From Acidobacteriota bacterium (GTDB lineage: Bacteria > Acidobacteriota > Vicinamibacteria > Vicinamibacterales > 2-12-FULL-66-21), in NCBI GenBank assembly GCA_016184105.1, contig JACPDI010000027.1:52112-116111 (forward strand): a stretch of 64,000 bases of DNA, given 5' to 3'. The notes under the pieces were generated by a model that saw only the letters and a list, made by a program, of their open reading frames with translations, was not told the origin of the DNA and ran no database searches. This document shows, piece by piece, positions 15,978-53,582 of this stretch; position 1 is the stretch's first letter, and the number at the start of each line of letters is the position of its first letter. The translations under genes were made by a program, and so were the position numbers.

Positions 15978-16139
15978 TGCCGCAAGGTTCCGCATCCGGC
16001 CGGCGGCGGGTGGCGTGCGCGGCGCTCGCCGTCCGCCGCTGGCTGGACACGGAAGTGATGACCGCGTGGGATCCACGCTGGGTCCTGCTGTTATTGGCGC
16101 GCCGCGATCCGGACGGCGGCTACGCCCGCGATACGCGGG

Positions 16140-17000
16140 CTACCAGCGTGAGTTTACGACATAGCCGAACCGGATCAGCTCACGGCCTGCCACCACCTTG
16201 AAAATTCGGCGCTTGGCCCAGTGCCAGTGCTGCCATCGTCCGATTGGCTGAAACTCGTCTGGTTTCTCGACGACATCCCAGTGCACGCGATCGCGGCTGC
16301 CGCGGTGCACCGACGAGCCACGCAGCGGGATCGACTGGAGCCCCGACCAGTTGAACGCGGATTCGTCGACATCCAGGAACGCGAGCAGCTCGCGCACGAC
16401 GCGCTCCGGGTCGCGAATCAGGTCTTCGTACTTCACCAGCGTCCACGACCAACCACGGTCCTGACCGCCGGTTTCGTCCATGAACCGCAGAATGGCACGC
16501 GCGCCGCTCGCCCACCGCTCCATCCAGTACGCGCCCGGCGCGTAGCGCCAGCTGCGGCCGGCAGACTCCACGACGTCGCGGCCGTCGCGCACGAGAATCA
16601 CGAGTTGCGCGTGCGGGAACAGCCGGAAGAAGTTCTCGAGATGCCGCGCGCTTGGCGTCTTGGCCAGCACCCGTCGTCCCTCATCGATCTGATCGCCGAG
16701 AAAGGCAAGGATGCCGTCGCCGATCCGCGAGAGCAGCTGCTCGCGGAACACCCGGCGTTCGACCGAGGTGGACTGGCCCCAGCTGCGGCCGGTCTTCTCG
16801 ACGTAGCGGACGAGGAGATCCGAATGCTCCAGCAGGTAGTCCTCGACAATCCGGCCGGGAAGCTTGAACACCGGATGCAGCCGGAGGACGTGGGACAGAT
16901 AGTTCGTCCCGCACCGATTCATGACGCCGACGATGAAGACCGGCGACGCCGCACGGACAGACGCCAACATCGCCCGGGACGTCAGCAAAGTCGTCGCCAT
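16140..17000 (-). CDS. sulfotransferase family protein (ST1)
   Basis: ORF 16140..17165 trimmed to ATG 17000. 5'-PSB-like FIVGVMNRCGTNYLSHVL and 3'-PB-like LVRDGRDVVES. Confidence 0.8.
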   Translation of the reverse strand: MATTLLTSRAMLASVRAASPVFIVGVMNRCGTNYLSHVLRLHPVFKLPGRIVEDYLLEHSDLLVRYVEKTGRSWGQSTSVERRVFREQLLSRIGDGILAFLGDQIDEGRRVLAKTPSARHLENFFRLFPHAQLVILVRDGRDVVESAGRSWRYAPGAYWMERWASGARAILRFMDETGGQDRGWSWTLVKYEDLIRDPERVVRELLAFLDVDESAFNWSGLQSIPLRGSSVHRGSRDRVHWDVVEKPDEFQPIGRWQHWHWAKRRIFKVVAGRELIRFGYVVNSRW

Positions 17001-17185
17001 GATGGTCTCGCGCCGCGGCCCATGCAGAACTCGTGCGGCGCGCAGACTCTTCGCGGCGCGGGGATCGATGTCACTCCGTAGGATGACTTTTGTTTGTCGG
17101 CGCGGCGGCTGACAAATCTCTTCACGAGGTGGCACACCGGGGAGCGTGCGTTGCGGCATCTCCATGCATCCGAGCGATCAGCGCG

Positions 17186-17201
17186 TGGCCGCGTCCTTGC
17201 T
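17186..17201 (+). promoter_or_regulatory. sigma-54-type -24/-12 promoter candidate for paralog B: TGGCCG-cgtcc-TTGCT
   Basis: Reads TGGCCGCGTCCTTGCT, 15 of 16 identical to the element at 36306. 53 nt upstream of GTG 17254, with SD AAGGAG in the leader. Confidence 0.6.
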
Positions 17202-17253
17202 AAGAGGTGTGCCCCGGGTTTCGGCAACATCATTCGCAGCTAAGGAGTCCTTC

Positions 17254-18744
<1,491 letters not shown>

Positions 18745-18780
18745 CCGGCGGGCACCTGCCGCCACTCGCTCACGCCTCCG

Positions 18781-18816
18781 GCCGCAGGAGAGACTCACGT
18801 AACGCTCTCCTGCGGC
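18781..18816. terminator. strong hairpin between convergent genes (possible bidirectional terminator, no U-tract)
   Basis: Perfect 12-bp stem GCCGCAGGAGAG (18781..18792) / CTCTCCTGCGGC (18805..18816) with a 12-nt loop. Confidence 0.45.
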
Positions 18817-18850
18817 TGCCCGCCTTCCGGGTCGCGACGCCGTCGGCGCA

Positions 18851-20713
18851 TCACCGGTCTGGGGTGCCGGCGGCCACCTCCCTGCTGATGGCGACGCGAT
18901 TGCGGCCCTTGCTCACGCGCACCTGCCGCAGCGTGATCAGGCCGAACTGATCTGCGGTAACGGTTCCCGACTGGACAACGCGGCCGCTCGACACGGCCGT
19001 ATTCGTCCAGCGGAACTCCTGCCCCGGTGCCGGACGCAGGCGCTGGAGACGCCGCGGCGTCACGTCTGCCGCACCCTCCGACTGCGCCGACCGTTCCGCC
19101 ACGCCGACGACGGCCTCCCATCGGTCCGGTTCGTCCCGGATGGTCGCCGGGTCCCAGTAGAGGAACGCGTTCACCTGGCCCTCGGCGTCGCCGCTCTCCG
19201 CCGATCCGTCTCCGGGATCGTCGTCGAGCGTGCCGCGCGAAAATGCTGGAAGGCTCTGATCGACACGGAGATCGAGGGGCATGACGTTCTGCTCGCCCGT
19301 CAGCGGCATCCTGGCGCGCTGGTTGTGCCCCCCGGGACCCCACACGAACATGTGCGGGCGCCTGGTTTCCTGGAGGGCCTGCAGGAATTCGACGGCCTGC
19401 GTCCATCCGATGGTCTTGTCCGTCCTTCCGTTGGAGAAGGTCAGGAACCCGATCTCCTTCTCCGGATGACGCCGGAGGAACCAGGCGTCGTTGTAGTAGT
19501 CCCACACCGGCGTGCCGTCCTCGAACTTCACGCCCCATGCCTCGCGGCCGTACACCTTCTGGTACGACGCTTTGAACCGGGGTGACTGTTCCGGGATGTG
19601 GACGCCCACCCAGGACACGGCCCAGGCGATCCGCTCCGGAAAGCGGATCGCGAGCATCAGGGATCCGGAGCCGCCCATCGAGCTGCCCGCCGCAAACACG
19701 CGGAGCGGATCGATTCGGATCTGCGTGGCCAGCCAGTCGACGAACGAGAGCAGGCGTCGCTGCGTGTACGGGCGTACGACTCCCTGCTGCCACACGGCGG
19801 CATCCTTGGGGCGCGGTGGCTTCTTCGCAGCCCCTGGGCTGAGATCCAGCGCCTCGTGGTAGCCGGTCCACCAGTCGTACGGCACTTGGTTCGACGCGAC
19901 GAGCACGGCACCGCGCTCGGTGCTGTACCACCAGCCGTAGCCCTTGTTCAGATTCCCTCCCCAACTGTGCATGTGGATGCCGATCGGCGCCGGCCAGCGC
20001 ACGTCCGCGGGAATCGCGACGACGTAGTCGAAGGGTCTACCGGGAGTGTTGGTGTTGGGTGGCACCTCCCAGCGCACGTAGTACCGAAGCGTGGCGCCGC
20101 GCACGAAGTTGAATCGGTCCGGGTGTTCGACCCGCTGCAGGACGGGAATCCCCGGACCGGAGGTTTCGCGCACGGGTTCCGACAGGCTGTTGCCCCGCTC
20201 GAGGCTGGTGTTCTCCACCCCGTTTTCGACGAGCGTCACGGCGTAATACGCCTGGCCGGCTGGCGGGTTGTAAACGAACAGGCCGGTTCCTTTCGCGAGA
20301 GGAGGCTTACCATCCTCGATCACGTAGTACAGGTCTTCGCCCTGGCGCTTGGCGGTAATCCCGTAGAAATCCTCGTTGCGGGCGCTGTCCTGCCGCACCT
20401 CTCCGACCGGCAGCATACCGGCGACGCTGGCGATCGGCTGGGACGACCGGTAGATGCGGTATTCGGTCCCCGCGTCTGACCTCGCAATGCCGCGCCGCGC
20501 GGCTCGGCGGACGGGGGGAGGTGCGTCCTCCCCTTCCGGGACACGTTCGGCCTGCGTGGTCCCGGCCTCCCGCCAGGTCAGAAATGTCTGCCCGTTCCGG
20601 TGCTCCGCGCGGAGATCCAGCGCGGGGGGTTCAGCGGGTCCGGCAAGCATGCCGGCGCCGAGCGGCGCCAGCGACAACAGCAATCCGACGGACAGCGGCG
20701 CGGGTCGCAACAT
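18851..20713 (-). CDS. secreted alpha/beta-hydrolase (esterase-like) protein
   Basis: ORF 18851..20848 trimmed to ATG 20713 (SD GGAGGA). Signal MLRPAPLSVGLLLSLAPLGAGMLAG. Nucleophile elbow FAAGSSMGGSGSL. Confidence 0.75.
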   Translation of the reverse strand: MLRPAPLSVGLLLSLAPLGAGMLAGPAEPPALDLRAEHRNGQTFLTWREAGTTQAERVPEGEDAPPPVRRAARRGIARSDAGTEYRIYRSSQPIASVAGMLPVGEVRQDSARNEDFYGITAKRQGEDLYYVIEDGKPPLAKGTGLFVYNPPAGQAYYAVTLVENGVENTSLERGNSLSEPVRETSGPGIPVLQRVEHPDRFNFVRGATLRYYVRWEVPPNTNTPGRPFDYVVAIPADVRWPAPIGIHMHSWGGNLNKGYGWWYSTERGAVLVASNQVPYDWWTGYHEALDLSPGAAKKPPRPKDAAVWQQGVVRPYTQRRLLSFVDWLATQIRIDPLRVFAAGSSMGGSGSLMLAIRFPERIAWAVSWVGVHIPEQSPRFKASYQKVYGREAWGVKFEDGTPVWDYYNDAWFLRRHPEKEIGFLTFSNGRTDKTIGWTQAVEFLQALQETRRPHMFVWGPGGHNQRARMPLTGEQNVMPLDLRVDQSLPAFSRGTLDDDPGDGSAESGDAEGQVNAFLYWDPATIRDEPDRWEAVVGVAERSAQSEGAADVTPRRLQRLRPAPGQEFRWTNTAVSSGRVVQSGTVTADQFGLITLRQVRVSKGRNRVAISREVAAGTPDR

Positions 20714-20764
20714 GGATGACAGTCCTCCGGCGATAGAACGACGCGGATCGCCGAGGTGATGTGA

Positions 20765-20780
20765 TGCCGGTCCCGTGCCG
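20765..20780 (-). promoter_or_regulatory. weak sigma-54-type -24/-12 candidate for the hydrolase gene: CGGCAC-gggac-CGGCA
   Basis: Reverse complement of 20765..20780. GG-N10-GC spacing is correct. Predicted leader of about 40 nt contains the SD. Confidence 0.3.
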
Positions 20781-20828
20781 GGCCTGGTGATGACGGGCGG
20801 CCGAAGAGACGGACCCGCGGAGAGATGT

Positions 20829-20864
20829 GTCTGCCCCGAGGCAGACATTACTCACGCGAAACGG
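20829..20864. promoter_or_regulatory. candidate upstream activator site: GTCTGCC-ccga-GGCAGAC palindrome plus a conserved CGCGAAACGG block
   Basis: Perfect 7+7 inverted repeat at 20829..20846. The pattern GTCTGCC-N7-AGACAT-N6-CGCRAAACGG recurs at 36197..36232 at the same distance (108 and 109 nt) from a -24 element. Confidence 0.55.
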
Positions 20865-20936
20865 CGCCAATCGGCGCTGCCGGCGCGATTGTCGCCGGGG
20901 ACGCGGCTTTTCGGGCGCCGCGTGGGGGTCCAGCGG

Positions 20937-20952
20937 TGGCGAGCACTTTGCT
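20937..20952 (+). promoter_or_regulatory. sigma-54-type -24/-12 promoter candidate for the xrtA operon: TGGCGA-gcact-TTGCT
   Basis: Reads TGGCGAGCACTTTGCT. 23 nt upstream of ATG 20975, 50 nt upstream of the alternative GTG 21002 that has SD GGGAGAGG. Confidence 0.6.
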
Positions 20953-20974
20953 GAACCTCCGCAACATCGCCCGC

Positions 20975-21853
20975 ATGTCAGGCAGCACGAGGGAGAGGCT
21001 TGTGGCTCCAGTGGTTCTCATCATCAGCTTCGCGCTCCTTTACCGTGACGTGCTCACGGGACTGGTGGCGGACTGGATGGGGGACCAGAACTACTCGCAT
21101 GGATTCCTGATCGTTCCCCTGGCGCTCTACTTCGCGTGGGAGCGGCGCAGGGAACTGGCCGAGGCGCCCGGCGGCCCGAGCATCGTGGGACTGTTCATCG
21201 CGCTCGGCAGCATCTCGCTGCTGGTCGCGGGAGTGCTCGGATCGGAGTTCTTCCTGACGCGGGTTTCGATGGTCGGCACCATCGCGGGCGTGGTGCTGTT
21301 CGTCCTCGGGCCGCACCACCTCCGCGTGCTGGCGTTTCCGCTGGCGTTCCTGCTCCTGATGATTCCGATCCCCGCGATCGTCTTCAATCAGATTGCGTTC
21401 CCACTCCAGTTGTTCGCGTCGTGGTTCGGCGAGACCGCGCTCGCCGTGTCGGGTGTGCCCGTGCTCCGAGAAGGCAATCTCATCGTGCTCACGGACACGA
21501 CGCTGGAGGTGGCGGAAGCCTGCAGCGGTATCCGCTCGCTCGTCTCGCTGTTCACCCTCGGCGTCGTCTACGCCTACTTCATGGAATCGCGCACGGCGAT
21601 CCGGGTGATCCTCGCGTGCGCAACGGTGCCGATTGCCATCATCACCAACGGCTGCCGCATCGCGGGCACGGGGGTCGCCGCGCAGGTCTACGGCAGCCGC
21701 GCCGCCGAGGGGTTTTTCCACACGTTCTCCGGCTGGCTGCTCTTCGTCATGGCGTTCGGGCTGCTGTTCCTGCTCCACCGCGGACTCCTCGTCGCGGCCG
21801 GCTGGGCGCAGCGGGCGCGCATCTCCCAGGGCGGCGCCGCTCGATGGGCATGA
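20975..21853 (+). CDS. xrtA: exosortase (XrtA/EpsH type)
   Basis: ORF 20825..21853 trimmed to ATG 20975 (alternative GTG 21002). Multi-TM protein. NYSHGFLIVPL, catalytic-Cys motif EVAEACSGIRS, Arg motif ITNGCRIAG, His motif FHTFSGW. Locus context of XrtA-associated families. Confidence 0.85.
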   Translation: MSGSTRERLVAPVVLIISFALLYRDVLTGLVADWMGDQNYSHGFLIVPLALYFAWERRRELAEAPGGPSIVGLFIALGSISLLVAGVLGSEFFLTRVSMVGTIAGVVLFVLGPHHLRVLAFPLAFLLLMIPIPAIVFNQIAFPLQLFASWFGETALAVSGVPVLREGNLIVLTDTTLEVAEACSGIRSLVSLFTLGVVYAYFMESRTAIRVILACATVPIAIITNGCRIAGTGVAAQVYGSRAAEGFFHTFSGWLLFVMAFGLLFLLHRGLLVAAGWAQRARISQGGAARWA

Positions 21854-22494
21854 CAGCCCGCATGCTGATCCTGTCGGCATGCCTCGCGGGCACCGGTGTC
21901 TGGCTGCGACAGGTGTGGGAGCCGCGGCCGGTCTTGCTCAGGGAGTCGCTTGCGACGTTTCCCACCATGATGGCGGGCTGGACGCTCGCGCGATCCGCTC
22001 CGTTGAACGAGCGGATTCGGCTGGAGCTGGGCGTCGACCAGTACGTGAACCGGTTGTACGCGAATGGGAGCGGGCGCCCTTTGGGCTTGTACGTCGGGTA
22101 CTACGAGCAGCAGCGGCAGGGGGACAGCATCCACTCGCCGCAGAACTGCCTGCCGGGCACGGGGTGGCGCCCGGTGGGGTCCGGCCGTTTTCGATTTGCC
22201 GCCGGCGGGCGTCCTCCAATCGAAGTGAATCGGTACCTCGTGCAAAAGGGACTGGATCGACAGCTCGTCTTTTACTGGTACCAGAGCCACGGCCGCGTCG
22301 TCGCGAGCGAGTACGCGGCGAAGGCGTACGCGCTCTGGGATGCGTTGCGCCTCAATCGCACCGACGGCGCGATCGTGCGCGTGGCGGTTCCCCTGCAGGA
22401 TGCATCGGCTGCGGCTGAGGCCGAGGGCGAAGCGCTCGCGCGCGAGTTCGTGGGCGTCCTTTGTCCGGTCCTGGACCGCTACCTCCCCTCGTAG
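21844..22494 (+). CDS. epsI: EpsI-family exosortase-associated protein
   Basis: Tail of ORF 21136..22494, starting at ATG 21844 (10-nt overlap with xrtA). N-terminal TM helix MGMTARMLILSACLAGTGVWL. YVGYYEQQRQGDSIHSPQNCLPGTGW..VFYWYQSHGR, typical of EpsI as I recall it. Confidence 0.8.
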   Translation: MGMTARMLILSACLAGTGVWLRQVWEPRPVLLRESLATFPTMMAGWTLARSAPLNERIRLELGVDQYVNRLYANGSGRPLGLYVGYYEQQRQGDSIHSPQNCLPGTGWRPVGSGRFRFAAGGRPPIEVNRYLVQKGLDRQLVFYWYQSHGRVVASEYAAKAYALWDALRLNRTDGAIVRVAVPLQDASAAAEAEGEALAREFVGVLCPVLDRYLPS

Positions 22495-25565: not shown

Positions 25566-26607
25566 CGTCCTCCCGGCCGGCGGGACCGCTGCGCTGTCGC
25601 AGGACGCAACGCCGCGCCTGCGCATCGCGCGTGATTGCGCGCGGGAATACTGGCGCGCGCGGCGCGCCCCGCGATTCACCCGCGCGGACCCCGTCAGGCT
25701 GCAGCATTCGCTCGACGTGCTCGCCCGCGGCGGCCGCACGATGCTCGCCGACGATCCGGTGTTCCTGCTGGCATCGGGCTGGCGCACGGGCTCGACGCTC
25801 CTGCAGAGGGTGCTCGTGACCGACCCCGCGCTGCTGATGTGGGGGGAGCCGCTGGGTCGCATGGCCCTGCTGCCGCGCCTCGCGGAGATGCTCGCGGCAG
25901 TGGACGACCGCTGGCCGACGCCGGAATCCGCCACGCTACCCCAGGATCCGAGCGGGCTCGCGACGTCGTGGATCGCGAACCTCTATCCCGGCAATGGCGA
26001 CCTCCGTCAGGGGCTCCGCGCGCTGCTCGATTCCTGGCTTGCCGCTCCCGCTCGGCGCCGGGGATACGTGCGGTGGGGTGTCAAGGAGGTGCGGCTCGGC
26101 GCCGCGGAAGCGTGCGTGCTCCGATGGCTGTATCCCGCAGCTCGCTTCATCCTGCTGCTCCGGCACCCGTTTGACTCATATCGTTCGGCACGCAACTGGC
26201 GCCTCTACTCGCGATGGCCGGACGAAACGGTCGACTGCGCGGTCGCCTTCGCACGGCACTGGAACCGTCTCGCGGTCAGCTGGAACGCCCGCACGACCGG
26301 CCTCGACCCGCTGGTCATCCGGTACGAGGATCTCGTCTCGGGGAAGTTCGATTTCGAGCGCCTGGGGAATTCCCTGGATCTGCAGCTCGCACCCGAACGC
26401 GCTCTTTCGTCGCGCCCCGGCGTCAGGCGCACGAGACGCGAGCTCTGTTCCTACGAGCGGCGCCTCGTCGTGCGCGAGGCCGCCGCCGGGATGGAGGCGT
26501 TCGGCTACCTGCCAGACGGTTCGACTGCCGTGTGGAAACAACCCGGACTGCCTGCACAGTCTGGCAGCACCATTCATGGGGAGGAGCCTCTGAAATGTCC
26601 GGAATGA
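25543..26607 (+). CDS. sulfotransferase family protein (ST2)
   Basis: ORF 25282..26607 trimmed to ATG 25543. 5'-PSB-like FLLASGWRTGSTLLQRVL and 3'-PB-like LLLRHPFDSYRS. Confidence 0.75.
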   Translation: MGSSVRTDVLPAGGTAALSQDATPRLRIARDCAREYWRARRAPRFTRADPVRLQHSLDVLARGGRTMLADDPVFLLASGWRTGSTLLQRVLVTDPALLMWGEPLGRMALLPRLAEMLAAVDDRWPTPESATLPQDPSGLATSWIANLYPGNGDLRQGLRALLDSWLAAPARRRGYVRWGVKEVRLGAAEACVLRWLYPAARFILLLRHPFDSYRSARNWRLYSRWPDETVDCAVAFARHWNRLAVSWNARTTGLDPLVIRYEDLVSGKFDFERLGNSLDLQLAPERALSSRPGVRRTRRELCSYERRLVVREAAAGMEAFGYLPDGSTAVWKQPGLPAQSGSTIHGEEPLKCPE

Positions 26608-28370
26608 TTGCCCCGCACGGTGGAACACTGGTGGATCTCGTGGCGCCGCCCGAACGCCGGCGTGAGGTCCAAAATGCGTCGCGCGACTGGCCGTCCTGGG
26701 ATCTGACGCCGCGGCAGATCTGCGATCTGGAGCTGTTGTTGAACGGCGGGTTCTCGCCGCTTCAGGGCTTCATGACCCGGACCGATTACGACCCGGCGTG
26801 CCGCGACATGCGCCTGGCCTGCGGGCTGCTCTGGCCGATACCCGTCGTGCTGGATCTGCCGGAGGAGCGCGCGGCCGGGCTCGCCCCGGGGTCGACGCTC
26901 GCACTCCGGGATGCCGAGGGCGTCATGCTGGCCATCCTGCACGTCGAAGACGTGTGGCGGCCGGATCGCGAGCAGGAAGCGCAGCTCGTGTACGGCACCA
27001 CGAGCCGCGAACATCCCGGCGTGGCCGCACTCCTGGAGCGCACCAACGCGTGGTACGTGGGCGGGCGGGTGGAAGGGCTGCAACTGCCCGTGCACTACGA
27101 CTACCGCGACTTGCGGCGCGCCCCGGCCGACGTCCGCGCGGAGTTTGCCGCGCGCGGCTGGCGGCGTGTCGTGGCGTTCCAGACACGCAACCCGATGCAC
27201 CGCGCCCACCAGGAGCTGACGCTCCGGGCGGCGGACGAATGCGACGCGAAGCTCCTCGTCCATCCGGTCGTCGGCATGACGAAACCCGGCGACGTGGACC
27301 ACTACACTCGTGTGCGGTGTTACCAGTCCGTGATGGCCACCTACCCGCAGGGCACCGCAATGCTGTCACTGCTGCCCATCGCGATGCGGATGGCCGGCCC
27401 GCGCGAGGCCGTGTGGCACGCGATCATCCGGAAGAATTACGGATGCACCCACCTGATCGTGGGCCGCGATCATGCCGGGCCGGGTGCCGATCGCTCCGGC
27501 CGGCCGTTCTATGGCGCCTACGACGCGCAGGCGCTGCTCCAGTCGGTCCAGGAGGAACTGGGCGTCGCCATGGTGCCGTTCAGGAACATGGTCTACCTCC
27601 AGGGCGAGGACCGCTACGTCCCGGACGACGAGGTGCCGGCACACGCGCGAGTGCTCAGCCTGTCGGGCACCGAGCTCCGCAGCCGCCTGGCCGACGGCCG
27701 CGACATCCCGGAGTGGTTCACGTTCCCGGAGGTGGCGGGCGAGTTGCGGCGGACGCACCCTCCACGCCGCCGCCAGGGCTTCACGATCTTCTTCACCGGC
27801 CTGTCCGGATCGGGCAAGTCGACGATCGCGAACATCCTGCTCGTCAAGCTGCTCGAGCGCGGCGGGCGCAGCGTCACGATGCTCGACGGCGACCTGGTCC
27901 GCAAGCACCTCTCGTCGGAGCTCGGCTTCTCACGCGAGCATCGCGACCTGAACATCAGGCGGATCGGCTACGTGGCCGCGGAGGTGTCGCGCAGCGGCGG
28001 CATCGCCATCTGCGCCCCGATCGCGCCGTACGACTCGGTGCGCCGCGACGTCCGGCGGATGGTGAAGAGCGGCGCCGGCTTCGTGCTGGTCCACGTGGCG
28101 ACGCCGATCGACATCTGCGAGAGCCGGGACCGGAAGGGGCTCTACGCAAAGGCCCGCGCCGGCATCCTGCAACAGTTCACAGGGATCTCCGACCCGTATG
28201 AGGCACCTGAGGACGCCGAGGTCGTGATCCACACCGATCAGTGCTCCGCGGAGGAAGCGGCGGATCGGATCGTCGGATACCTGGAGATGGAGGGCTATCT
28301 GGAGCCGGCGCGGGCCGACGTCACCGCGGCGGCCGCATCAGGAGAATCGCAGATACAGCTCCTGGTATGA
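26595..28370 (+). CDS. sat-cysC: bifunctional sulfate adenylyltransferase / adenylylsulfate kinase (PAPS synthase)
   Basis: ORF 26214..28370 trimmed to ATG 26595 (SD GGGGAGGAG). ATP-sulfurylase motifs FQTRNPMHRAHQEL and VGRDHAGPG. APS-kinase P-loop FFTGLSGSGKST and ..LDGDLVRKHL. Confidence 0.9.
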   Translation: MSGMIAPHGGTLVDLVAPPERRREVQNASRDWPSWDLTPRQICDLELLLNGGFSPLQGFMTRTDYDPACRDMRLACGLLWPIPVVLDLPEERAAGLAPGSTLALRDAEGVMLAILHVEDVWRPDREQEAQLVYGTTSREHPGVAALLERTNAWYVGGRVEGLQLPVHYDYRDLRRAPADVRAEFAARGWRRVVAFQTRNPMHRAHQELTLRAADECDAKLLVHPVVGMTKPGDVDHYTRVRCYQSVMATYPQGTAMLSLLPIAMRMAGPREAVWHAIIRKNYGCTHLIVGRDHAGPGADRSGRPFYGAYDAQALLQSVQEELGVAMVPFRNMVYLQGEDRYVPDDEVPAHARVLSLSGTELRSRLADGRDIPEWFTFPEVAGELRRTHPPRRRQGFTIFFTGLSGSGKSTIANILLVKLLERGGRSVTMLDGDLVRKHLSSELGFSREHRDLNIRRIGYVAAEVSRSGGIAICAPIAPYDSVRRDVRRMVKSGAGFVLVHVATPIDICESRDRKGLYAKARAGILQQFTGISDPYEAPEDAEVVIHTDQCSAEEAADRIVGYLEMEGYLEPARADVTAAAASGESQIQLLV

Positions 28371-44784: not shown

Positions 44785-45410
44785 CAGGGATACGCGCGAC
44801 CGCCAAGGCGATTGCGCGGGCCCTCGCGACCGTGGCGGTCGCCCCCGCGCTCGTGTCCTACTGGATCCGTGCCCGCGTGTTCGGCCGGGACCGTGCGCTG
44901 GCCGGATCGACGCAGGCGCTGTCGCTGATTCCGGGGCTCCCCGGACGGTACCTGCGGGCGGCGTTCCTTCGCCGGGTACTCCAGGAATGCAGTGCTGAAG
45001 TGGCGATCGAGTTCGGCGTGCTGTTCTCGCAGGCGGGTGCCCGCATCGAGCCGCACGTGTATGTCGGGCCCGGATCGCACCTCGGCCTCGTGCACCTCGA
45101 GCGCGACGTCCTGCTCGGCGCCGCGGTTCACGTGACGAGCGGGCCGGCCACGCACGGGATCGCAGACCTGACGATTCCGATCCGCGAGCAGCCCGGAACG
45201 CCGCGGCTGGTCCGCATCGGTGCGGGCTCGTGGATCGGCAGCGGCAGCGTGGTCATGGCCGACGTCGGGCGCGGCACGGTCGTCGCCGCCGGGGCGGTCG
45301 TGACGCGACCGCTGCCCGACTGCGTCATCGCGGCCGGTGTGCCCGCGCGCATCATCCGGGCGCGCGCGGTTGCCGCCGATGCCGACCGTCCCGAGGCGTT
45401 GGTGTCGTGA
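44781..45410 (+). CDS. hexapeptide-repeat (LbH) acyl/acetyltransferase
   Basis: ORF 44781..45410 (ATGA overlap). Hexapeptide repeats IGAGSWIGSGSVVMADVGRGTVVAAGAVV. Confidence 0.8.
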   Translation: MTGIRATAKAIARALATVAVAPALVSYWIRARVFGRDRALAGSTQALSLIPGLPGRYLRAAFLRRVLQECSAEVAIEFGVLFSQAGARIEPHVYVGPGSHLGLVHLERDVLLGAAVHVTSGPATHGIADLTIPIREQPGTPRLVRIGAGSWIGSGSVVMADVGRGTVVAAGAVVTRPLPDCVIAAGVPARIIRARAVAADADRPEALVS

Positions 45411-46624
45411 AGATTCTCTACCTCACGCACCGGGTGCCGTACGCGCCGAACCGCGGCGACCGCCTGCGCGCGTTTCACGCGCTGCGCCTGCTGGCGGCCG
45501 AACACCAGGTCTCGCTGGTCTCGCTGGCGCACGGCCGGGAGGAGACGCGCGACCTCTCGGCGCTTCGACCGCTGGTGCGTGACCTGGAAATCGTGCGGGT
45601 GTCGCGTGCAGGGCAGGCCGTGCGGGCGGCACGCGGGCTCGCCACCGGCCGTCCGCTGACGCACTGCCTGCTCGACGCCTCCGGGATGCGGCCGGCGCTC
45701 GAGCGGATCGTGCGGCGCCGGCAGCCGGAGGTCGTCCTGGCGTACTGCTCGGGCATGGCGCGCTTCGCGGCGGAGCCGCCGCTTGCAGACATTCCGTTCG
45801 TGCTCGATCTCGTCGACGTCGACTCGCTGAAATGGGCGGAGCTGGCTCTCGCCACGCGCGGACCGCTCGGTCGAGTCTATGCCCGCGAGGCGCAGCGCCT
45901 GCGGGCGTTCGAGGCGCGTGCCAGCCTTGCCGCGCGCGCGGCGCTCGTCGTGAACGAGCGCGAGCGCGCGGCGCTCGTCCGCCTGGCGCCCGACGCGTAC
46001 GTGAGAATCGTGCCCAACGGCGTGGATCTGGAATCGTTCGCGCCTCCGGCGGATGTGCCCCGGCGACGCGACGTCGTCTTCTGCGGCGTCATGAACTACG
46101 GCCCTAACGCGGACGCCGCGCGGTGGCTGGCGCGCGACGTGTGGCCGCGCGTCCGGCGCGACGTGGCCGACGCGAGACTCCTGATCGTCGGCGCCGATCC
46201 AACCGCTGCCGTCCGCGCGCTGGCCTCGCCACGCCAGCAGATCGAGGTGACCGGCACGGTATCGGACGTCCGGCCGTATCTCTGGCAGGCGGTCGCTGCC
46301 GCGGCGCCGCTCGCCACGGCGCGCGGCGTTCAGAACAAGGTGCTCGAAGCCGTGGCCGCCGGAACCCCCTGCGTCGTCACGCCGCAGGTGGCGGAAGGCC
46401 TCCCCCACGAAGTGCTGCCCGCGTGCGTGCAGGCGGCCGACGCGGACGCATTCGCCGTCGCGCTTGCGCGCCTCCTCCACCTCGCCGACGACGAGCGTCG
46501 CGCGCTCGTCGCGGGCGCCGACCTGGCGTCGCTCGGCTGGCCGCAACGGCTGGCGGCGCTCCCGGCCATCCTTGAAGCCGCGGCCTTCAGCCGGGAGAGC
46601 GCCGCGGCATTGGGCCTCGCATGA
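45407..46624 (+). CDS. PEP-CTERM/EpsH1-system-associated sugar transferase-like glycosyltransferase
   Basis: Tail of ORF 45230..46624, starting at GTG 45407 (GTGA overlap). N-terminus VKILYLTHRVPYAPNRGDRLRAFHALRLLA matches my memory of that family. Confidence 0.8.
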   Translation: MKILYLTHRVPYAPNRGDRLRAFHALRLLAAEHQVSLVSLAHGREETRDLSALRPLVRDLEIVRVSRAGQAVRAARGLATGRPLTHCLLDASGMRPALERIVRRRQPEVVLAYCSGMARFAAEPPLADIPFVLDLVDVDSLKWAELALATRGPLGRVYAREAQRLRAFEARASLAARAALVVNERERAALVRLAPDAYVRIVPNGVDLESFAPPADVPRRRDVVFCGVMNYGPNADAARWLARDVWPRVRRDVADARLLIVGADPTAAVRALASPRQQIEVTGTVSDVRPYLWQAVAAAAPLATARGVQNKVLEAVAAGTPCVVTPQVAEGLPHEVLPACVQAADADAFAVALARLLHLADDERRALVAGADLASLGWPQRLAALPAILEAAAFSRESAAALGLA

Positions 46625-48429
46625 GCTGGGAACCGCTCGTCGCGCTCGCCCTCCTTGTCGCTATCCTTTATATATTGGGGCGGAACCTTGCGCCGCCCGA
46701 TGTCACGCTGGTTGGCGGGCTGACGGCGCTGATGTCGCTCAGCGCGTTCTCCGGCCGCTTCCCGACCCCCCGCGAGGCCGCCCTGGCGTTCGGCAACGAG
46801 GGACTGCTGACAGTCGGCGTCCTGTTCGTCATTGCCGCGGGGCTCACCGAAACGGGCGGAATCGCGCTGCTGACCGAACGCCTCCTGGGCCGTCCGGCCA
46901 CGCTCCTGCGCGCCCTCGTCCGGATGATCGTGCCGGTGGCCGTCACCAGCGCGTTCATCAACAACACGCCGGTCGTGGCGATGTTCGTGCCCGTCATCGG
47001 CGAGTGGTGCAAGAAGACACGCCAGAGCCCGTCGAAACTCTTCATTCCGCTCAGCTATGCCGCCATTCTCGGCGGGGTCTGCACGCTCATCGGCACCAGC
47101 ACGAACCTCGTCGTCCAGGGGATGCTGATCGAGGCGAACAAGACGGATCCCTCGATCCGGCCGTTCGGGATGTTCACGATTACGCCGCTCGGCCTGCCCG
47201 TCGCCCTCGCCGGGCTGGCGTACCTGGTCGTCCTCGCGCCGCGGCTGCTGCCCGATCGGCGACAGCCCGCCTGGAACGGCGACGAGACGCGACAGTACAC
47301 CGCGGAGCTGCTCGTCAGGCGCAACAGCCCGATCGTCGGAAAGACGGTCGAAGACGCCGGCCTTCGGCACCTGCCGGGCGCCTACCTGATGGCTATCCAG
47401 CGCGGCGCCGAATCGCTCGCCGGCATCGGGCCGGGGCAGCGCCTGCTCGCCGAGGATCGGCTGGTGTTTGTGGGCATCGTGGACTCGCTCGTCGAGCTGC
47501 AGAACGTCCGCGGGCTGTCGCCGCCGCTCGAGCACACGTACCGCGTGAACGATCGGCGCGAGGATCGGTGCCTGACCGAGGTGGTCGTCAGCCCGCGATG
47601 CCCTCTTGTCGGCAAGAGCATCCGGGAGGGGCAGTTCAGGAACCGCTACGACGCCGTGGTCCTGGCCGTGCACCGGCACGGCGAGCGTATCCAGGAAAAG
47701 ATTGGCGACATCGTGCTGAAAGTCGGCGACACGCTGTTGCTGCAGACCCGCCCATGGTTTCACCGGAAGCACCGGAACAACGGCGACTTCTTCCTCAGCT
47801 CCGCCGTCCCCGGATCCCGTCCGGTCCGCCACGACCGCGCCTGGATCGCCCTGGCGATCTTCGCCGCTCTGGTGGTCGCCGCGGCGTTCGAGGGGAGCCT
47901 CGGGTTGAGCCTGCTGAACATTGGACTGCTCGCGGCGGCGCTCATGGGTCTGACGCGCTGCTGCTCGGCCGAGCAGGCGCGGCGCAGCATCGACTGGTCG
48001 ACTCTCATCGCGATTGGCGCCGCGATCGGCATCGGGCGCGCGATCGAGTCAACAGGCCTCGCGGCCATCGCGGCGGCCACGCTCGTCGACGCGCTTCGCC
48101 CCGCCGGGCCGTGGGCCGTGCTCGCGGGAATCTACCTGCTGACGCTGGTCTTCACGGAAATCGTCACCAACAACGCCGCCGCCGCACTGGCTTTCCCGAT
48201 CGCGCTCGCCGCGGCGCGCGGCATGGGCGTGGACTTCGTGCCGTTTGCGGCAACGGTCATGGTGGCCGCATCGTCCGGGTTTGCGACGCCGCTCGGCTAC
48301 CAGACGCACATGATGGTGTACGGGCCGGGAGGATACCGGTTCGGCGATTTCGTCCGCATCGGCCTGCCGCTCGATCTGCTGCTGATGATCGTCACCGTGC
48401 TGGTGACACCCCTGGTGTTCCCCTTCTGA
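46621..48429 (+). CDS. SLC13/DASS-family anion transporter with two central TrkA-C (RCK_C) domains
   Basis: ORF 46621..48429 (ATGA overlap). TM-rich halves with SAFINNTPVVAMF and FTEIVTNNAAAAL hairpin motifs. Two soluble TrkA-C-like inserts (..GKTVEDAGLR.., ..GKSIREGQFR..). Confidence 0.85.
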   Translation: MSWEPLVALALLVAILYILGRNLAPPDVTLVGGLTALMSLSAFSGRFPTPREAALAFGNEGLLTVGVLFVIAAGLTETGGIALLTERLLGRPATLLRALVRMIVPVAVTSAFINNTPVVAMFVPVIGEWCKKTRQSPSKLFIPLSYAAILGGVCTLIGTSTNLVVQGMLIEANKTDPSIRPFGMFTITPLGLPVALAGLAYLVVLAPRLLPDRRQPAWNGDETRQYTAELLVRRNSPIVGKTVEDAGLRHLPGAYLMAIQRGAESLAGIGPGQRLLAEDRLVFVGIVDSLVELQNVRGLSPPLEHTYRVNDRREDRCLTEVVVSPRCPLVGKSIREGQFRNRYDAVVLAVHRHGERIQEKIGDIVLKVGDTLLLQTRPWFHRKHRNNGDFFLSSAVPGSRPVRHDRAWIALAIFAALVVAAAFEGSLGLSLLNIGLLAAALMGLTRCCSAEQARRSIDWSTLIAIGAAIGIGRAIESTGLAAIAAATLVDALRPAGPWAVLAGIYLLTLVFTEIVTNNAAAALAFPIALAAARGMGVDFVPFAATVMVAASSGFATPLGYQTHMMVYGPGGYRFGDFVRIGLPLDLLLMIVTVLVTPLVFPF

Positions 48430-48432
48430 GCC

Positions 48433-50979
48433 ATGCCGGCCGGCCCCCGTTCGTCGTGCGCCGTTTACGTTGCGCCGCTGGCGCCGGCCGCCGGCCGCGT
48501 GCGGATGTACCGCGGCCAGCCGCTCAGACTGGGCGTTCCGCTGCCGCGGGAATGGCTGAGCGATCCCCGGCAGGTCCGCCTGCGCGATGCGGCGGGCCGC
48601 GAGGTCCCGCTTCAGGCGACGCCGGTGGATCTCTGGAGCGATACCAGCGTCCGGTGGCTCCTGCTGGATTTTCAGGTCACGCTCGCGGGCGAGCGCGGAA
48701 CCTACCAACTCGAGCGAGGTTGCTCGATTCAGCCGCCCTTGCCGTCGCTCGCGCGAGAACGTGCGGACGGCACCGTCGAGATCGATACCGGACCCACCCG
48801 CTTCGAGGCGCGAAGCGGCCGGGAATTTCCTCTGACCGCGGGCCCTGCCGCGATGGCGCTGGAGATCGAGGACGAAGACGGCCACCGGCTCGACGCGACG
48901 TTCACGTCGGTCGCGATCGAGGAGAACGGCCCGCTGCGGGCGACTGTCCGCGCCGATGGCCGGATCGGAGGGAGGCGCCAGCGTGCGCTCCTCGAGCTGG
49001 CGCTTCTGATGCACTTCTACCGCGGATCGACGGTCGCCCTCTTCGAGCTGACGACGCGAAATCCCAGGCGCGCGTCGCATCCAGGGGGGTACTGGGAGCT
49101 GGGCGGCGGCGGATCTGTTCTGCTCCGCGAGCTGACGGTGTCGATCCGCCTTCCTGCAGGCGAGGCCCGCGCGCGGTGCTCACCGGAGACCGGCGCGCCG
49201 TTCGCCGACCTGACCGCCCCGATGGAGTTGTACCAGGACTCGAGCGGCGGCAGCAATTGGCAGAGCCGCAACCACGTGAGCCGCCACGGGCGCACCACGG
49301 TGGCGTTTCGCGGGTATCGGTTCAGGGTTGCCGGCAGGCAGGGCCGCGGCTGGCGTGCGACGCCCATCGTCTCGGCGTGGAGCGGGCGCGCGCACGTGTC
49401 GATCGCCATGCGGCAGTTCTGGCAGAACTTCCCGAAGTGTCTCGCGTGGGAGCGCGACTGCCTTCGGCTGTCGCTCTTCCCGCGGCAGGCGGCGGATCTG
49501 CACGAGATCCAGGGGGGCGAGCAGAAGACGCACGCGTTCTTCATCGGCTTCGGCGCCGACGCGATCACCGACGAGCCGCTCGACTGGGTTCGCTCGCCGC
49601 TCTGCGCGTGGGTCGATCCCGCCTGGGCCTGCGCCACCGGCGCGTTCGGCTCTGTCCTGCCGCTCGCCGAGGATGCTCGCGAGGACTGCGTGCGGCTCGC
49701 ACGCGCCGCCATCGAGGGTCCCACCGCGTTTGCCGCGAGGCGCGAGGTCGTCGACGAATACGGCTGGCGTCACTTCGGCGATCTCTACGCGGACCACGAG
49801 TCGGTTCACGCGCCGGCGGAACGGCCGCTGATCTCCCACTACAACAACCAGTACGACGCCGTCGCGGGATTCGCCTGCCAGCACCTTCGCGACGGCGACC
49901 TGCGCTGGCGCGAGCTGATGGACGATCTTGCGGCGCACGTCGTGGACGTGGACATCTATCACACCGGCGAGGATCGCTCCGAGTACAGCCACGGGCTCTT
50001 CTGGCACACCGCCCACTACGTCGATGCGGGACGCTCGACGCACCGGACGTACGCGCGCTCCAGCGCCGCCGGCGGCGGAGGCCCTTCCGCCGAGCACAAC
50101 TACACGACGGGGCTCATGCTCCACTGGTTCATGACCGGCTCGCGCCGGTCCCGGGATGCGGTGCTGGAGCTCGCCGGGTGGGTGCTGCAGATGGAAGAGG
50201 GGGGGCGTGCGATCCTGCGGTGGATCGCGCGTCCCCCCTCCGGCGCCGCGACGCGGACGGTGTCGCCGCTCTATCACGGCCCCGGCCGCGGCGCGGGCAA
50301 CTCGATCAACGCGATGCTGGACGCGTTCCGCCTGACGGGCGAGGCGCGCTATCTCGAGGCCGCCGAGCGGTTCATCCGCCGGTGCATCCATCCGCGCGAC
50401 GACATCGCGGCGCGCGCGCTGCTGGACGCCGAGCGGCGCTGGTCCTATACCGTGTTCCTCCAGGCGCTCGGCAAGTATCTCGATATCAAGCGCGAGCGCG
50501 GCGAGCGCGATCGAATGTACCGCTACGCGCGGTGCAGCCTGCTCGCCTACGCCGACTGGATGGCGGCGCACGAGCGCGCCTACCTCGATCATCCGGAGGC
50601 GCTCGAGTTTCCGACCGAGACGTGGGCCGCGCAGGAGCTCCGCAAAGCGGATGTGTTCCGCCTCGCCGCGGCGTACGGCACGAGCGAGCGCCGGCCGGTG
50701 TATGTGGAGCGATCGGAGTATTTTTACGACCGCGCGATCGGTGGTCTGCGCAACGCGCCCACGCGAACGCTGACCCGTCCGCTCGTGCTGCTCATCACCA
50801 ACACCGTCGCGCCCCCTGCGCGGCTCACCGTCCCCGCCGACGCATCGCCCGATCCCGTCGAGGATTTCGGACACCCGGCGCCGTTCGTGTCGCAGCGCCA
50901 GCGCGCCGCGCGGCGCCTGGCCTCCGCAGCCGCCCTGATCATGGCGGCCACGCTGCTGCTGCTCCTCGCGGCGCTCTGA
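48433..50979 (+). CDS. large conserved hypothetical protein (848 aa) with a C-terminal hydrophobic tail
   Basis: ORF 48433..50979. No signal peptide seen. Motifs VDEYGWRHFGDLYADHE, ISHYNNQYD, GLFWHTAHY, EHNYTTGLMLHWF. Ends in AALIMAATLLLLLAAL. Confidence 0.7.
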   Translation: MPAGPRSSCAVYVAPLAPAAGRVRMYRGQPLRLGVPLPREWLSDPRQVRLRDAAGREVPLQATPVDLWSDTSVRWLLLDFQVTLAGERGTYQLERGCSIQPPLPSLARERADGTVEIDTGPTRFEARSGREFPLTAGPAAMALEIEDEDGHRLDATFTSVAIEENGPLRATVRADGRIGGRRQRALLELALLMHFYRGSTVALFELTTRNPRRASHPGGYWELGGGGSVLLRELTVSIRLPAGEARARCSPETGAPFADLTAPMELYQDSSGGSNWQSRNHVSRHGRTTVAFRGYRFRVAGRQGRGWRATPIVSAWSGRAHVSIAMRQFWQNFPKCLAWERDCLRLSLFPRQAADLHEIQGGEQKTHAFFIGFGADAITDEPLDWVRSPLCAWVDPAWACATGAFGSVLPLAEDAREDCVRLARAAIEGPTAFAARREVVDEYGWRHFGDLYADHESVHAPAERPLISHYNNQYDAVAGFACQHLRDGDLRWRELMDDLAAHVVDVDIYHTGEDRSEYSHGLFWHTAHYVDAGRSTHRTYARSSAAGGGGPSAEHNYTTGLMLHWFMTGSRRSRDAVLELAGWVLQMEEGGRAILRWIARPPSGAATRTVSPLYHGPGRGAGNSINAMLDAFRLTGEARYLEAAERFIRRCIHPRDDIAARALLDAERRWSYTVFLQALGKYLDIKRERGERDRMYRYARCSLLAYADWMAAHERAYLDHPEALEFPTETWAAQELRKADVFRLAAAYGTSERRPVYVERSEYFYDRAIGGLRNAPTRTLTRPLVLLITNTVAPPARLTVPADASPDPVEDFGHPAPFVSQRQRAARRLASAAALIMAATLLLLLAAL

Positions 50980-51040: not shown

Positions 51041-52402
51041 CTACACGACCGCGGATGGTACCGGCGCGTCCCCGAACGCCGGCGCGGGCGCGTTATCCAC
51101 CGCCCGGGCCGCCACAGCCGTCTTCGTGATCCGATCGAGCGCCATCGTCAGTCCGGCGATGTTCCAGAAGATATGCACGTACTGGAAGGGAATGAAGCAC
51201 GCCCCCACCGCATAGACGAAGAGACTGGTTTCCAGCGCGGTCGCATACACGCCGAACTCGGCGTCGATCGTGCCCTGTCGGGCCTGCCGGCGCGCCCGCC
51301 GGCAGGCAATCAGGGCAAGCAGCATGGTGGAGCCGAACAGCATGAGACCCGGGAAACCAAGCTCCGCCAGCACCCCGAACCACGCGCTGTGGACGGAGCG
51401 GTGGGTACCGAACTCGCCGCCCGAAAAATCGTACGCGTCGAAGCTTGGGTTGTAACCGAGATAACCCACACCGGTCAGCGGGCGGTCGCGCGCCATGTCG
51501 ACGGCGACCGTCCAGAAGTGAAGCCGTCCCATGGCCGACCGGTCCCCGCGATCAGTCTCCGGGCCGCCGTCATCGTCGCGATTGATGACGCGATCGGCCG
51601 CCAAGCGAATCGTCTCCATCCGGTCCCAGAACTTCTCGGGAAAGACGGTCAGAATGAGCCCCGCCAGCAGCCCCACTCCAACTGCCGCGCGCACCTTGTG
51701 CCGCGAGCGCAGGAAATACAGCATGCCGAGGACGCCGGCTGACAGGAATCCACCGCGGGAATAGGTCGCGATCCCCCGGAACACGACCCCGACTGCCATG
51801 AAACGGTGCACGACCGCTTCCGATCGCCGGGCGGCGGTGCTCGCGAGCGCGAGCAGCAGCGGCGTTAGCATGAACATCGCCAGCGCGGCACCGTTTTCAT
51901 CGCCGAACGGTGGAATGCGGTTGACGTTCTTTGCTCCCGGGTTGAGCAGCAGTTGCAACCATCCCTGCTTCGACGCCTCGAACCCGAGCGATACGGCAAT
52001 CACCAGGAGCGTGAGCCGGAAGCGCAGCCGATCGCTCACGAGCGTCGCCACCGCGTACGTCACCACGAGGGATTTCGCCAGATCGGGCCAGTAAGCCCAC
52101 GAGTACTCCGCGTGCGGACCCAGCGCCGTGGAGAGAATGCTCTGAAGCAGGAACAGGAAGAGCACGACCGTCCGCAGGTCGAGCCGGATCCGCTCGCGCT
52201 CCCGAGAAAGCAACAGCGATCCCACGAGCGCCAATCCGGCGATGAACGACAGATTGAGCTGTCCGACGAAATCACCCCACACCCACTGCTCCGGTCTGAA
52301 GTACGCAATCCAGAGGTAGAGGAGGAGGACGTAGAACGGGCCGCGAAGGCCGTAGAAGATACCCACGCCGGCGATGCTCATGACGAACAGATTGCGCAGC
52401 AT
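51041..52402 (-). CDS. O-antigen ligase / Wzy-like membrane protein (exosortase-system O-glycosylation ligase-like)
   Basis: ORF 51041..52414 trimmed to ATG 52402 (SD GGAGGA 52403..52408). 10 or more TM helices. Loop ..RSAMGRLHFWTVAVDMARDRPLTGVGYLGY.. typical of the Wzy_C/O-antigen ligase family. Confidence 0.8.
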   Translation of the reverse strand: MLRNLFVMSIAGVGIFYGLRGPFYVLLLYLWIAYFRPEQWVWGDFVGQLNLSFIAGLALVGSLLLSRERERIRLDLRTVVLFLFLLQSILSTALGPHAEYSWAYWPDLAKSLVVTYAVATLVSDRLRFRLTLLVIAVSLGFEASKQGWLQLLLNPGAKNVNRIPPFGDENGAALAMFMLTPLLLALASTAARRSEAVVHRFMAVGVVFRGIATYSRGGFLSAGVLGMLYFLRSRHKVRAAVGVGLLAGLILTVFPEKFWDRMETIRLAADRVINRDDDGGPETDRGDRSAMGRLHFWTVAVDMARDRPLTGVGYLGYNPSFDAYDFSGGEFGTHRSVHSAWFGVLAELGFPGLMLFGSTMLLALIACRRARRQARQGTIDAEFGVYATALETSLFVYAVGACFIPFQYVHIFWNIAGLTMALDRITKTAVAARAVDNAPAPAFGDAPVPSAVV

Positions 52403-52417
52403 TCCTCCGTGCACGCT

Positions 52418-52433
52418 CGCAAACCGCCGGCCA
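52418..52433 (-). promoter_or_regulatory. sigma-54-type -24/-12 promoter candidate for the ligase-like gene: TGGCCG-gcggt-TTGCG
   Basis: Reverse complement of 52418..52433 reads TGGCCGGCGGTTTGCG. The C of the -12 GC is 17 nt upstream of ATG 52402. Confidence 0.55.
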
Positions 52434-52557
52434 CCTGGGGGCAGACTTCTTCCGCCTCAGCAGCGTCACGATCGGCATCTGACCGCCTCCGGGAAGACCA
52501 AAGTCTTCCGCGAAGGAGACAATCGCCTGGCGCGGTGTGGCCTGGCGCCCGGCTCCC

Positions 52558-52573
52558 GGGCGACACTCTTGCA
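52558..52573 (+). promoter_or_regulatory. sigma-54-type -24/-12 candidate for ST4: GGGCGA-cactc-TTGCA
   Basis: GG-N10-GC spacing is correct and the -12 TTGCA is perfect, but the -24 is moderate. 29 nt upstream of ATG 52602. Confidence 0.35.
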
Positions 52574-52601
52574 GTCGCCCGAGGAGCGCGAAAGGCGACT
52601 G

Positions 52602-53582
52602 ATGACCACCGGAACAGCGGCCGTTCGAGTGCCGGAGCCCGCGGCGATGCCCTCCCCGACGGGGGCCAATTACGCGTTCATCGTCGGGCACTACAAGAGC
52701 GGGAGCACGTGGCTGGCGAACCTGCTGGCCCTGCATCCGGATATCCGCTGCCTCGGCGAGACGAACGTCTTTCGTTATGCGGCCACGCAGGACATCGCCA
52801 CGGCCACGCGTAACCTGTTTACCAGCTCGTACTGGAGCGGCGGCGGCCTCGCCAGGCTGCCGCGGCATCGGCTGGCGGTCGCGGCGGCCGCTGTGCAGGG
52901 GCTGTGGCGGCAGGCCCCCCCGCGGACCGCGCGTCCCTCGACGCTGCTGGATCTCAGCCTGCTCGACCAGCGCGCGCTCAGGCGCGAGCTGCTGGCCAGC
53001 AGGTCGGGCGAGGATTACTGCCGCCGCTTCTTCGACTTCGTGGGCGCGCGCCTCAAGCCGCGCGCGTACCTGGTCGAGAAGACGCCCAATCACGTGCTCG
53101 TGACCCCGTTCATCCGGTCGGTCTTTCCCGAGGCACGGCTCGTCGCCGTGTATCGCGACGGGCGCGATGTCGTCGTCTCCGATCGGTTCTTCTCGGCGCG
53201 GCGCGGCCGGGCGTGGAATTTCGCGGCGAGCGTCGAATACTGGCGCCGGCTGATCGAAGCGCAGCGCGCGTACGCGTCGAAGTACGGCATCTTCACCTGC
53301 GCTTACGAGTCGCTGCTCGAGGATGGCGCCGGGACGGTCGCCGGGCTGCTGCGGTTCCTGGGGCTCCCCGCCGACGAGCACGTGTCCGCGATGCTGCGCT
53401 ACTCGTCGATCAGTTTCATGACCGGGCGCCGGCCGGGAGACGAGGACCGAGGAAGTTTCTACCGCAGGGGCGTCCGCGGCGACTGGCGGAATCACTTCAC
53501 CGACGAGGACAAGCGCCGGTTCAAGGAGATCGCCGGCGACCTGCTGATCGAGCTGGGGTACGAACGCGACGGAGACTGGTGA
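52602..53582 (+). CDS. sulfotransferase family protein (ST4)
   Basis: ORF 52374..53582 trimmed to ATG 52602. 5'-PSB FIVGHYKSGSTWLANLL, 3'-PB AVYRDGRDVVVSD, C-terminal RRGVRGDWRNHFT. Confidence 0.85.
   Translation: MTTGTAAVRVPEPAAMPSPTGANYAFIVGHYKSGSTWLANLLALHPDIRCLGETNVFRYAATQDIATATRNLFTSSYWSGGGLARLPRHRLAVAAAAVQGLWRQAPPRTARPSTLLDLSLLDQRALRRELLASRSGEDYCRRFFDFVGARLKPRAYLVEKTPNHVLVTPFIRSVFPEARLVAVYRDGRDVVVSDRFFSARRGRAWNFAASVEYWRRLIEAQRAYASKYGIFTCAYESLLEDGAGTVAGLLRFLGLPADEHVSAMLRYSSISFMTGRRPGDEDRGSFYRRGVRGDWRNHFTDEDKRRFKEIAGDLLIELGYERDGDW

Follow-up and report, generated by a model that had tools for sequence, protein, structure and literature searches.

A TrkA-C-bearing permease with a DASS-type fold as candidate sulfate importer in an exosortase-type exopolysaccharide locus of an Acidobacteriota bacterium

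The combination of a permease with the supply of 3'-phosphoadenosine 5'-phosphosulfate (PAPS) is already known in other bacteria, and the PerO-type permeases, the algal SLT and SAC1 proteins and a capsule gene cluster of Cobetia marina have been published as precedents. Here, we compare with these systems a gene from a groundwater bacterium of the Acidobacteriota, located in a 64,000-nucleotide stretch of contig JACPDI010000027.1 (positions 52,112 to 116,111; from here on the window). The gene lies at 46621..48429 on the + strand and encodes a permease of 602 residues, P0001, in which TrkA-C domains are inserted into a predicted DASS-type fold. From sequence comparisons we infer both a substrate and a direction: P0001 probably imports sulfate for the PAPS synthesis encoded in the same locus. 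This reading is drawn from the gene neighbourhoods of its orthologs, from the inventory of sulfur genes in the genome and from sulfate transport in related permease families.

Among these families, the PerO permeases are assigned to DASS and import sulfate, molybdate, tungstate and vanadate. They occur in Rhodobacter, Sinorhizobium, Agrobacterium, Dinoroseobacter and Pseudomonas, where they work next to ABC systems as importers of low affinity (Gisin 2010 and Hoffmann 2017, as cited in PMC5840216 and PMC4710039). The function described there for PerO of Rhodobacter capsulatus (YP_003577054) is the one proposed here for P0001, whereas no PerO genes are reported from polysaccharide loci. A homologue search that started from the Paracoccus relative returned Paracoccus proteins only. 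In Chlamydomonas, SLT1-3 are SLC13-like Na+/sulfate transporters with TrkA-C domains in an intracellular loop, and SAC1 combines two TrkA-C domains with the PS01271 signature and has bacterial homologues (PMC8780407). P0001 shares with them the basic design of an SLC13-like protein with TrkA-C domains, but these proteins are eukaryotic, the SLTs carry three to four such domains and SAC1 is regarded as a sensor.

The setting of the gene has its own precedents. In Cobetia marina KMM 1449, the cluster for the sulfated capsule includes cysN/cysC, cysD, cysQ and 'a sulfate permease gene' (PMC11766843). The permease family is not named in that paper, but the layout, a permease together with sulfate-activation genes in the service of a sulfated surface polymer, is exactly that of the P0001 orthologs. 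Similarly, Bacillus subtilis has a cysP-sat-cysC operon (Mansilla and de Mendoza 2000, as cited in PMC5840216), although CysP belongs to the PiT family, unlike P0001. In contrast to both, the P0001 gene has glycosyltransferase genes around it, lies 18 kb from sat-cysC and belongs to an exosortase (XrtA) locus of Acidobacteriota. E. coli YfbS has the same length and the same order of membrane half, two TrkA-C domains and membrane half, and is 31% identical over 588 residues (residues 42-602, E 4e-72). Its record reads 'putative transporter' only, and its motifs SST, ATPPN and SSPVN stand where P0001 has NNT, GTSTN and GYQTH. The canonical DASS carriers VcINDY and human NaS1 (SLC13A1) have the elevator fold also predicted for P0001 (Foldseek E 1e-11 to 1e-9, TM-scores 0.62-0.79) and keep the central hairpin Asn, but they are only 13-15% identical and lack the TrkA-C insertion.

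The neighbourhoods of P0001 orthologs carry most of the argument. We surveyed 160 loci from GTDB genomes and metagenomes, with the scans of genome and metagenome contigs reaching identities of at most 61%, and sulfate activation emerged as the single recurrent theme. An all-against-all clustering of 4171 flanking open reading frames yielded no conserved neighbour outside sulfur metabolism; the top clusters were generic (ABC ATPase, response regulator, SDR), and the best of them, the ABC ATPase, was present at 10 of 80 loci. In all five Acidobacteriota genomes with orthologs of at least 57% identity, the source genome counted, the gene lies beside or near Sat-CysC, CysD/CysN-CysC or a sulfotransferase. 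Within the same family, G024 encodes a permease 57-63% identical to P0001, read in two frames, followed by Sat-CysC, an epimerase, GT4 glycosyltransferases, AsnB, Wzy_C and a sulfotransferase; its Sat-CysC is 70% identical to that of the window and likewise sits inside an exopolysaccharide locus. The permease of G044 (58%) precedes a perhaps degenerate Sat-like/APS kinase fusion, CysD and CysN-CysC, that of G408 (59%) is followed by CysD and CysN-CysC, and that of G392 (59%) has a sulfotransferase immediately downstream and a second one 10 kb away. At 48% identity, G317 still shows the order CysC, CysD, permease, sulfotransferase. Cys genes also adjoin the permease in four further genomes (G356, G125, G354, G162) and at six metagenome and GTDB loci (L076, L084, L116, L140, L141, L144).

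A tree of 171 homologues, rooted on YfbS, shows how this linkage is distributed. All 13 cys-adjacent rows fall into one clade of 122 rows with 100% support that also holds P0001, and none is found among the 49 rows outside it. Their positions require at least seven separate lineages, and none of 500 label shuffles was equally clustered. The partners vary, with either Sat or CysDN and differing gene orders, but they almost always include an APS kinase or a sulfotransferase. Because partners and orders change around this near-constant element, the linkage points to PAPS supply and not to chance or to one inherited block.

Some of these loci deserve a comment in their own right. The G024 ortholog (C5:833986-835792) lies directly upstream of an intact Sat-CysC, and its two frames meet near L186:12709-12711, which reflects either a frameshifted pseudogene or a sequencing error. 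The operon on contig C15 of G044 (L184:9767-16227) contains two APS kinase domains, one in the Sat-like fusion that follows the permease and one fused to CysN behind CysD; the first fusion has only a weak match to an ATP-sulfurylase domain (44 bits), which may be degenerate. An apparent fusion of permease and sulfotransferase at L191 was rejected, as the tblastn alignment had run through a stop and the genes are separate, 12 nt apart. In a Planctomycetota metagenome-assembled genome (contig VGZE01000018.1, L031:6936-11797), a 55%-identical permease follows genes for a sulfatase and an aldehyde dehydrogenase that share its strand. In this phylum, the transporter family could also draw on sulfate that sulfatases set free. 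A chance adjacency is likely here too, because genomes of the Planctomycetota are reported to be rich in sulfatase genes.

The inventory of sulfur genes in the source genome (4.24 Mb, 96% complete) fits well with a role in PAPS supply. Searches of this genome found no SulP, no CysTW or CysPTWA and no CysZ, and the best ABC match was ModB of a ModABC system. The Sat-CysC of the locus is the only APS kinase and the only Sat-type ATP sulfurylase found, APS being adenosine 5'-phosphosulfate. Assimilation is encoded elsewhere, in an operon on contig C39 (~13700-22100; L013:4723-13083) with a TauE/TSUP permease, CysD, CysN, CysH, siroheme synthase, sulfite reductase and CysK, after which a ThiS-ThiF-rhodanese fusion follows. 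The TSUP permease of this operon had no family match in the NCBIfam scan. Its CysH carries the CC...CxxC pattern of APS reductases, enzymes that need no PAPS. Because assimilation on C39 uses CysDN and this apparent APS reductase, PAPS seems to be made in this organism only for sulfotransferases. The genome thus has two sulfate-activating systems, CysDN on C39 and Sat-CysC in the exopolysaccharide locus, each with a different permease gene.

The window as a whole is an exosortase-type exopolysaccharide locus, in which P0001 is encoded together with Sat-CysC, sulfotransferases, exosortase, glycosyltransferases and Wzy_C. Sat-CysC, a bifunctional ATP sulfurylase/APS kinase that we propose draws on the imported sulfate, is encoded at 26595..28370 (+). 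It was identified by Pfam and by NF004040 (887.9 bits, cut-off 669), and its ATG at 26595 is preceded by GGAGGAG. Two sulfotransferases (PF13469/PF00685 by Pfam) would use the PAPS, one at 16140..17177 (-) and one at 52356..53582 (+), 1.4 kb past the final gene of the operon. The window further encodes a sigma-54 activator, a GGDEF protein, TPR proteins, the exosortase EpsH, an ABC-2 permease, several GT4 glycosyltransferases, two AsnB proteins, a FemAB-like protein, two carbamoyltransferases, Ugd, a DUF3473 deacetylase, an initiating sugar transferase and a ParA-like kinase.

We annotate the permease gene of this locus as a candidate sulfate importer of the TrkA-C-bearing, DASS-fold type from its reading frame, junctions, Pfam matches, identity to YfbS and AlphaFold2 model. 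Its G+C content by codon position (0.69/0.48/0.88) is typical for genes of this 70% G+C genome. The ATG start (46621-46623) overlaps the TGA (46622-46624) of the gene before it in the sequence catgag (46620-46625), so that the ATGA overlap with a glycosyltransferase reported in the preliminary description of the window is indeed present at 46621-46624. This upstream gene (45230..46624, +) matches the PEP-CTERM/XrtA-system glycosyltransferase profile TIGR03087 (340.6 bits, cut-off 316.65) and is itself preceded by genes for a hexapeptide transferase, a GT4 glycosyltransferase, a beta-helix protein, an AsnB-like protein and a GT-C/HAD/UbiA trio. Downstream, the TGA stop of P0001 (48427-48429) is followed by GCC and then by the ATG of an 848-residue gene (48433..50979, +), which thus starts 4 nt after the final base of the stop, with a gap of 3 nt, again as described before. 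The flanking genes are exopolysaccharide genes, and the earlier placement of the permease inside a run of such glycosyltransferase genes stands. A scan of the P0001 gene boundaries revealed no terminator-like or promoter-like signals above background. The 848-residue protein had no family match in the NCBIfam scan; weak matches to PcRGLX-like N-terminal and central domains and to the GH127 catalytic domain (E 4e-05 to 5e-04) suggest a possible role in glycan cleavage, as a lyase or a hydrolase.

An assembly artefact does not explain the gene order, because contigs from two other studies bridge both junctions: a single sediment-metagenome contig of 11.2 kb covers 45191-50900 with 49 differences and no gaps, and two contigs of a third study bridge each junction. 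Sediment and groundwater metagenomes of other studies contain near-identical strains (~99% and ~97% identity) in which the gene order over 44800-50900 is unchanged, and these differ by substitutions only, without insertions or deletions.

At the level of the protein family, P0001 matches CitMHS (PF03600) over residues 20-547 (1.6e-65, 221.8 bits against a cut-off of 31.9), TrkA_C in two stretches (2.9e-23, the best at 318-376) and Na_sulph_symp (PF00939; 1.9e-14, 54 bits against 27), the last with its best stretch in the C-terminal half only. Against the NCBI DASS model TIGR00785 it scores 113 bits, below the cut-off of 198.6 bits, which two other genes of the same genome pass with 263.6 and 268.7 bits. 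These canonical genes lie at C56:47975-49573 and C42:63258-65762, one of them within an 834-residue open frame with a long N-terminal extension. Since it misses the TIGR00785 cut-off, P0001 appears, as judged by profile scores, to be a relative of the canonical DASS family (Transporter Classification 2.A.47) and not a core member. The earlier label 'DASS/SLC13' therefore holds for the fold and the Pfam thresholds and has to be narrowed to a TrkA-C-bearing, YfbS-like branch. The tandem TrkA-C domains named along with it are borne out by the two Pfam stretches and by two beta-rich segments of the structural model.

The AlphaFold2 model (pLDDT 78, pTM 0.68) consists of helical membrane halves at residues 3-209 and 404-599, with beta-rich domains at 226-297 and 317-393 sitting between the helices 188-209 and 404-422. 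Foldseek aligned it to VcINDY with E 1.1e-11 and TM-scores of 0.74-0.79 depending on the target and to NaS1 with TM-scores of 0.62-0.72, and also matched NaCT, NaDC3 and Pho90. As modelled, P0001 has the DASS elevator fold, with two inverted halves that each end in a helical hairpin. The N-terminal half (residues 1-212; 46621..47256, +), delimited by the model helices and the VcINDY alignment, contains the hairpin-tip motif N114-N115-T116 and G158-T-S-T-N162. It is followed by the first TrkA-C (RCK_C) domain at residues ~226-297 (47296..47511, +) and the second at ~317-393 (47569..47799, +), both placed by Pfam and the model strands and related to each other as an internal repeat (E 8e-06). 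The C-terminal half (residues 404-602; 47830..48426, +) aligns to VcINDY residues 264-437 and contains T516-N517-N518 and the invariant columns P557-x-G-Y-Q-T-H563-M-M-V.

These motifs occupy the transport site of the related structures and invite a comparison with them. Ser-Asn-Thr at both hairpin tips is the DASS motif described for VcINDY. P0001 has NNT (114-116) and TNN (516-518) where VcINDY has SNT twice, with an invariant central Asn and differing flanks, and in the TM5b and TM10b motifs it has GTSTN and PLGYQTH where VcINDY has GSPPN and ATPPN. None of these positions varies among the homologues compared, whose identities reach down to 31%. The stretch ASSGFATPLGYQTHMMV fits the PROSITE sodium:sulfate symporter signature PS01271 except at His563, where the pattern expects Asn; within the clade of P0001 this position is His in 95 rows and Asn in 24. 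The sequence P-x-G-Y-Q-T-(H/N)-M-M-V (residues 557-566) replaces the canonical DASS TPPN and is near-invariant in 170 TrkA-C permeases from many phyla, while E. coli YfbS lacks it and has SSPVN. This motif may mark a substrate class.

Homologues of about 600 residues number in the thousands, the nearest being 59-65% identical and derived from metagenomes. Named ones are called 'SLC13 family permease' or 'di/tricarboxylate transporter', and Atlas clusters labelled 'TrkA-C domain protein' and 'SLC13 family permease' match P0001 with a score of 0.98. Of the 401 genomes sampled from the Acidobacteriota, 102 contain a match with an E value of 1e-90 or lower, a tally that includes one unpublished genome (G106).

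Several observations weigh against sulfate import for PAPS synthesis. In the window P0001 is not adjacent to Sat-CysC but 18 kb away, and about 64 clade members with readable flanks, the majority, stand alone with no sulfur genes nearby. A strong APS kinase match without a P0001 ortholog was seen in nine of 36 same-family genomes, so PAPS synthesis can do without such a permease. The source genome encodes other possible sulfate importers, namely the two canonical DASS genes, the TSUP permease and PiT genes. Similarity in fold and sequence to solved structures does not distinguish sulfate from dicarboxylate carriers, and NNT, TNN and GYQT(H/N)MMV are common to cys-linked and unlinked clades; as all sampled clades share them, these motifs do not reveal the substrate. 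Finally, close homologues are publicly annotated as 'di/tricarboxylate transporter', a label that looks generic and automatic. The last points are the ones on which a carrier of di- or tricarboxylates or other organic anions would build, for example one that supplies or removes an acid decorating the polymer; CitMHS as the best Pfam family and dicarboxylate carriers as the nearest solved structures agree with it. Yet none of the 160 loci revealed a conserved gene of carboxylate metabolism nearby, sulfate-activation genes recur in at least seven lineages, and the motifs differ from VcINDY with NNT/TNN for SNT/SNT and GYQTH for TPPN, all of which makes a carboxylate carrier improbable.

The main rival reading takes P0001 for a PerO-type permease that accepts oxyanions in general at low affinity, such as sulfate, molybdate, tungstate and selenate, and covers all sulfate needs of the cell, with its position among exopolysaccharide genes being incidental. 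PerO is described as a general oxyanion importer (PMC4710039, PMC5840216), most family members are stand-alone genes, and with no SulP, CysPTWA or CysZ found P0001 might be the main importer. We nevertheless consider this unlikely: the assimilatory cysDN operon has its own TSUP permease, the linkage is specific to CysC-containing modules and sulfotransferases, and no ortholog was found in the same-genus genome, which also lacks an APS kinase, or in 34 of the 36 same-family genomes searched, a pattern that fits an accessory role better. A different possibility is that P0001 does not import at all, and is instead a sulfate sensor (transceptor) or an exporter of an anionic product. Chlamydomonas SAC1 has the same layout with two TrkA-C domains and is hypothetically involved in sulfur perception (PMC8780407), and RCK_C domains suggest signalling. 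Against this, all transport-site positions are invariant across phyla and no signalling partner is conserved nearby. Bacterial PAPS-dependent sulfation is cytoplasmic and needs no exported sulfur nucleotide, and we regard both the sensor and the exporter as very improbable.

Sulfate import for PAPS synthesis thus remains the reading we favour. The preliminary description had gone one step further and called P0001 a dedicated importer feeding the PAPS synthase of the locus; linkage, inventory and published relatives support the import and its destination, while dedication to this single purpose is what we infer. It had also considered a transporter inside a glycosyltransferase operon unusual, which does not hold, as such permeases recur in PAPS and polysaccharide loci and a comparable cluster has been published (PMC11766843).

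In the mechanism we propose, P0001 would be a secondary, elevator-type anion permease of the TrkA-C-bearing DASS/ion-transporter branch, presumably cation-coupled, through which sulfate, and probably also look-alike oxyanions, would cross the inner membrane inward. The Sat-CysC of the locus would convert the imported sulfate to APS and then to PAPS, and the sulfotransferases of the locus would use PAPS to yield a sulfated XrtA-type exopolysaccharide. Because the permease appears to be translationally coupled to the exopolysaccharide glycosyltransferase genes, uptake capacity should rise with polymer synthesis. The two RCK_C domains, predicted to be cytoplasmic and placed between the inverted halves, probably bind a ligand in the cytoplasm and adjust transport accordingly. 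An extended version of this scheme would have two insulated sulfate lines, one of TSUP permease, CysDN and APS reductase and one of TrkA-C permease and Sat-CysC, with the RCK_C pair sensing PAPS, APS, 3'-phosphoadenosine 5'-phosphate or the adenylate charge and throttling the entry of sulfate in step with polymer sulfation. This is speculative, and we think it doubtful; if true, it would amount to a feedback-gated sulfate supply line built into an exopolysaccharide operon.

The analysis offers a substrate proposal, sulfate, for a widespread and poorly named group of permeases, one sub-clade of which would flag PAPS-dependent sulfation. Bacteria of soil and groundwater have been little studied for their sulfated polymers, and the gain here is better annotation and no new principle. 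For the organism itself, the arrangement would form a self-contained path that starts with external sulfate and ends in a sulfated exopolysaccharide of the exosortase type.

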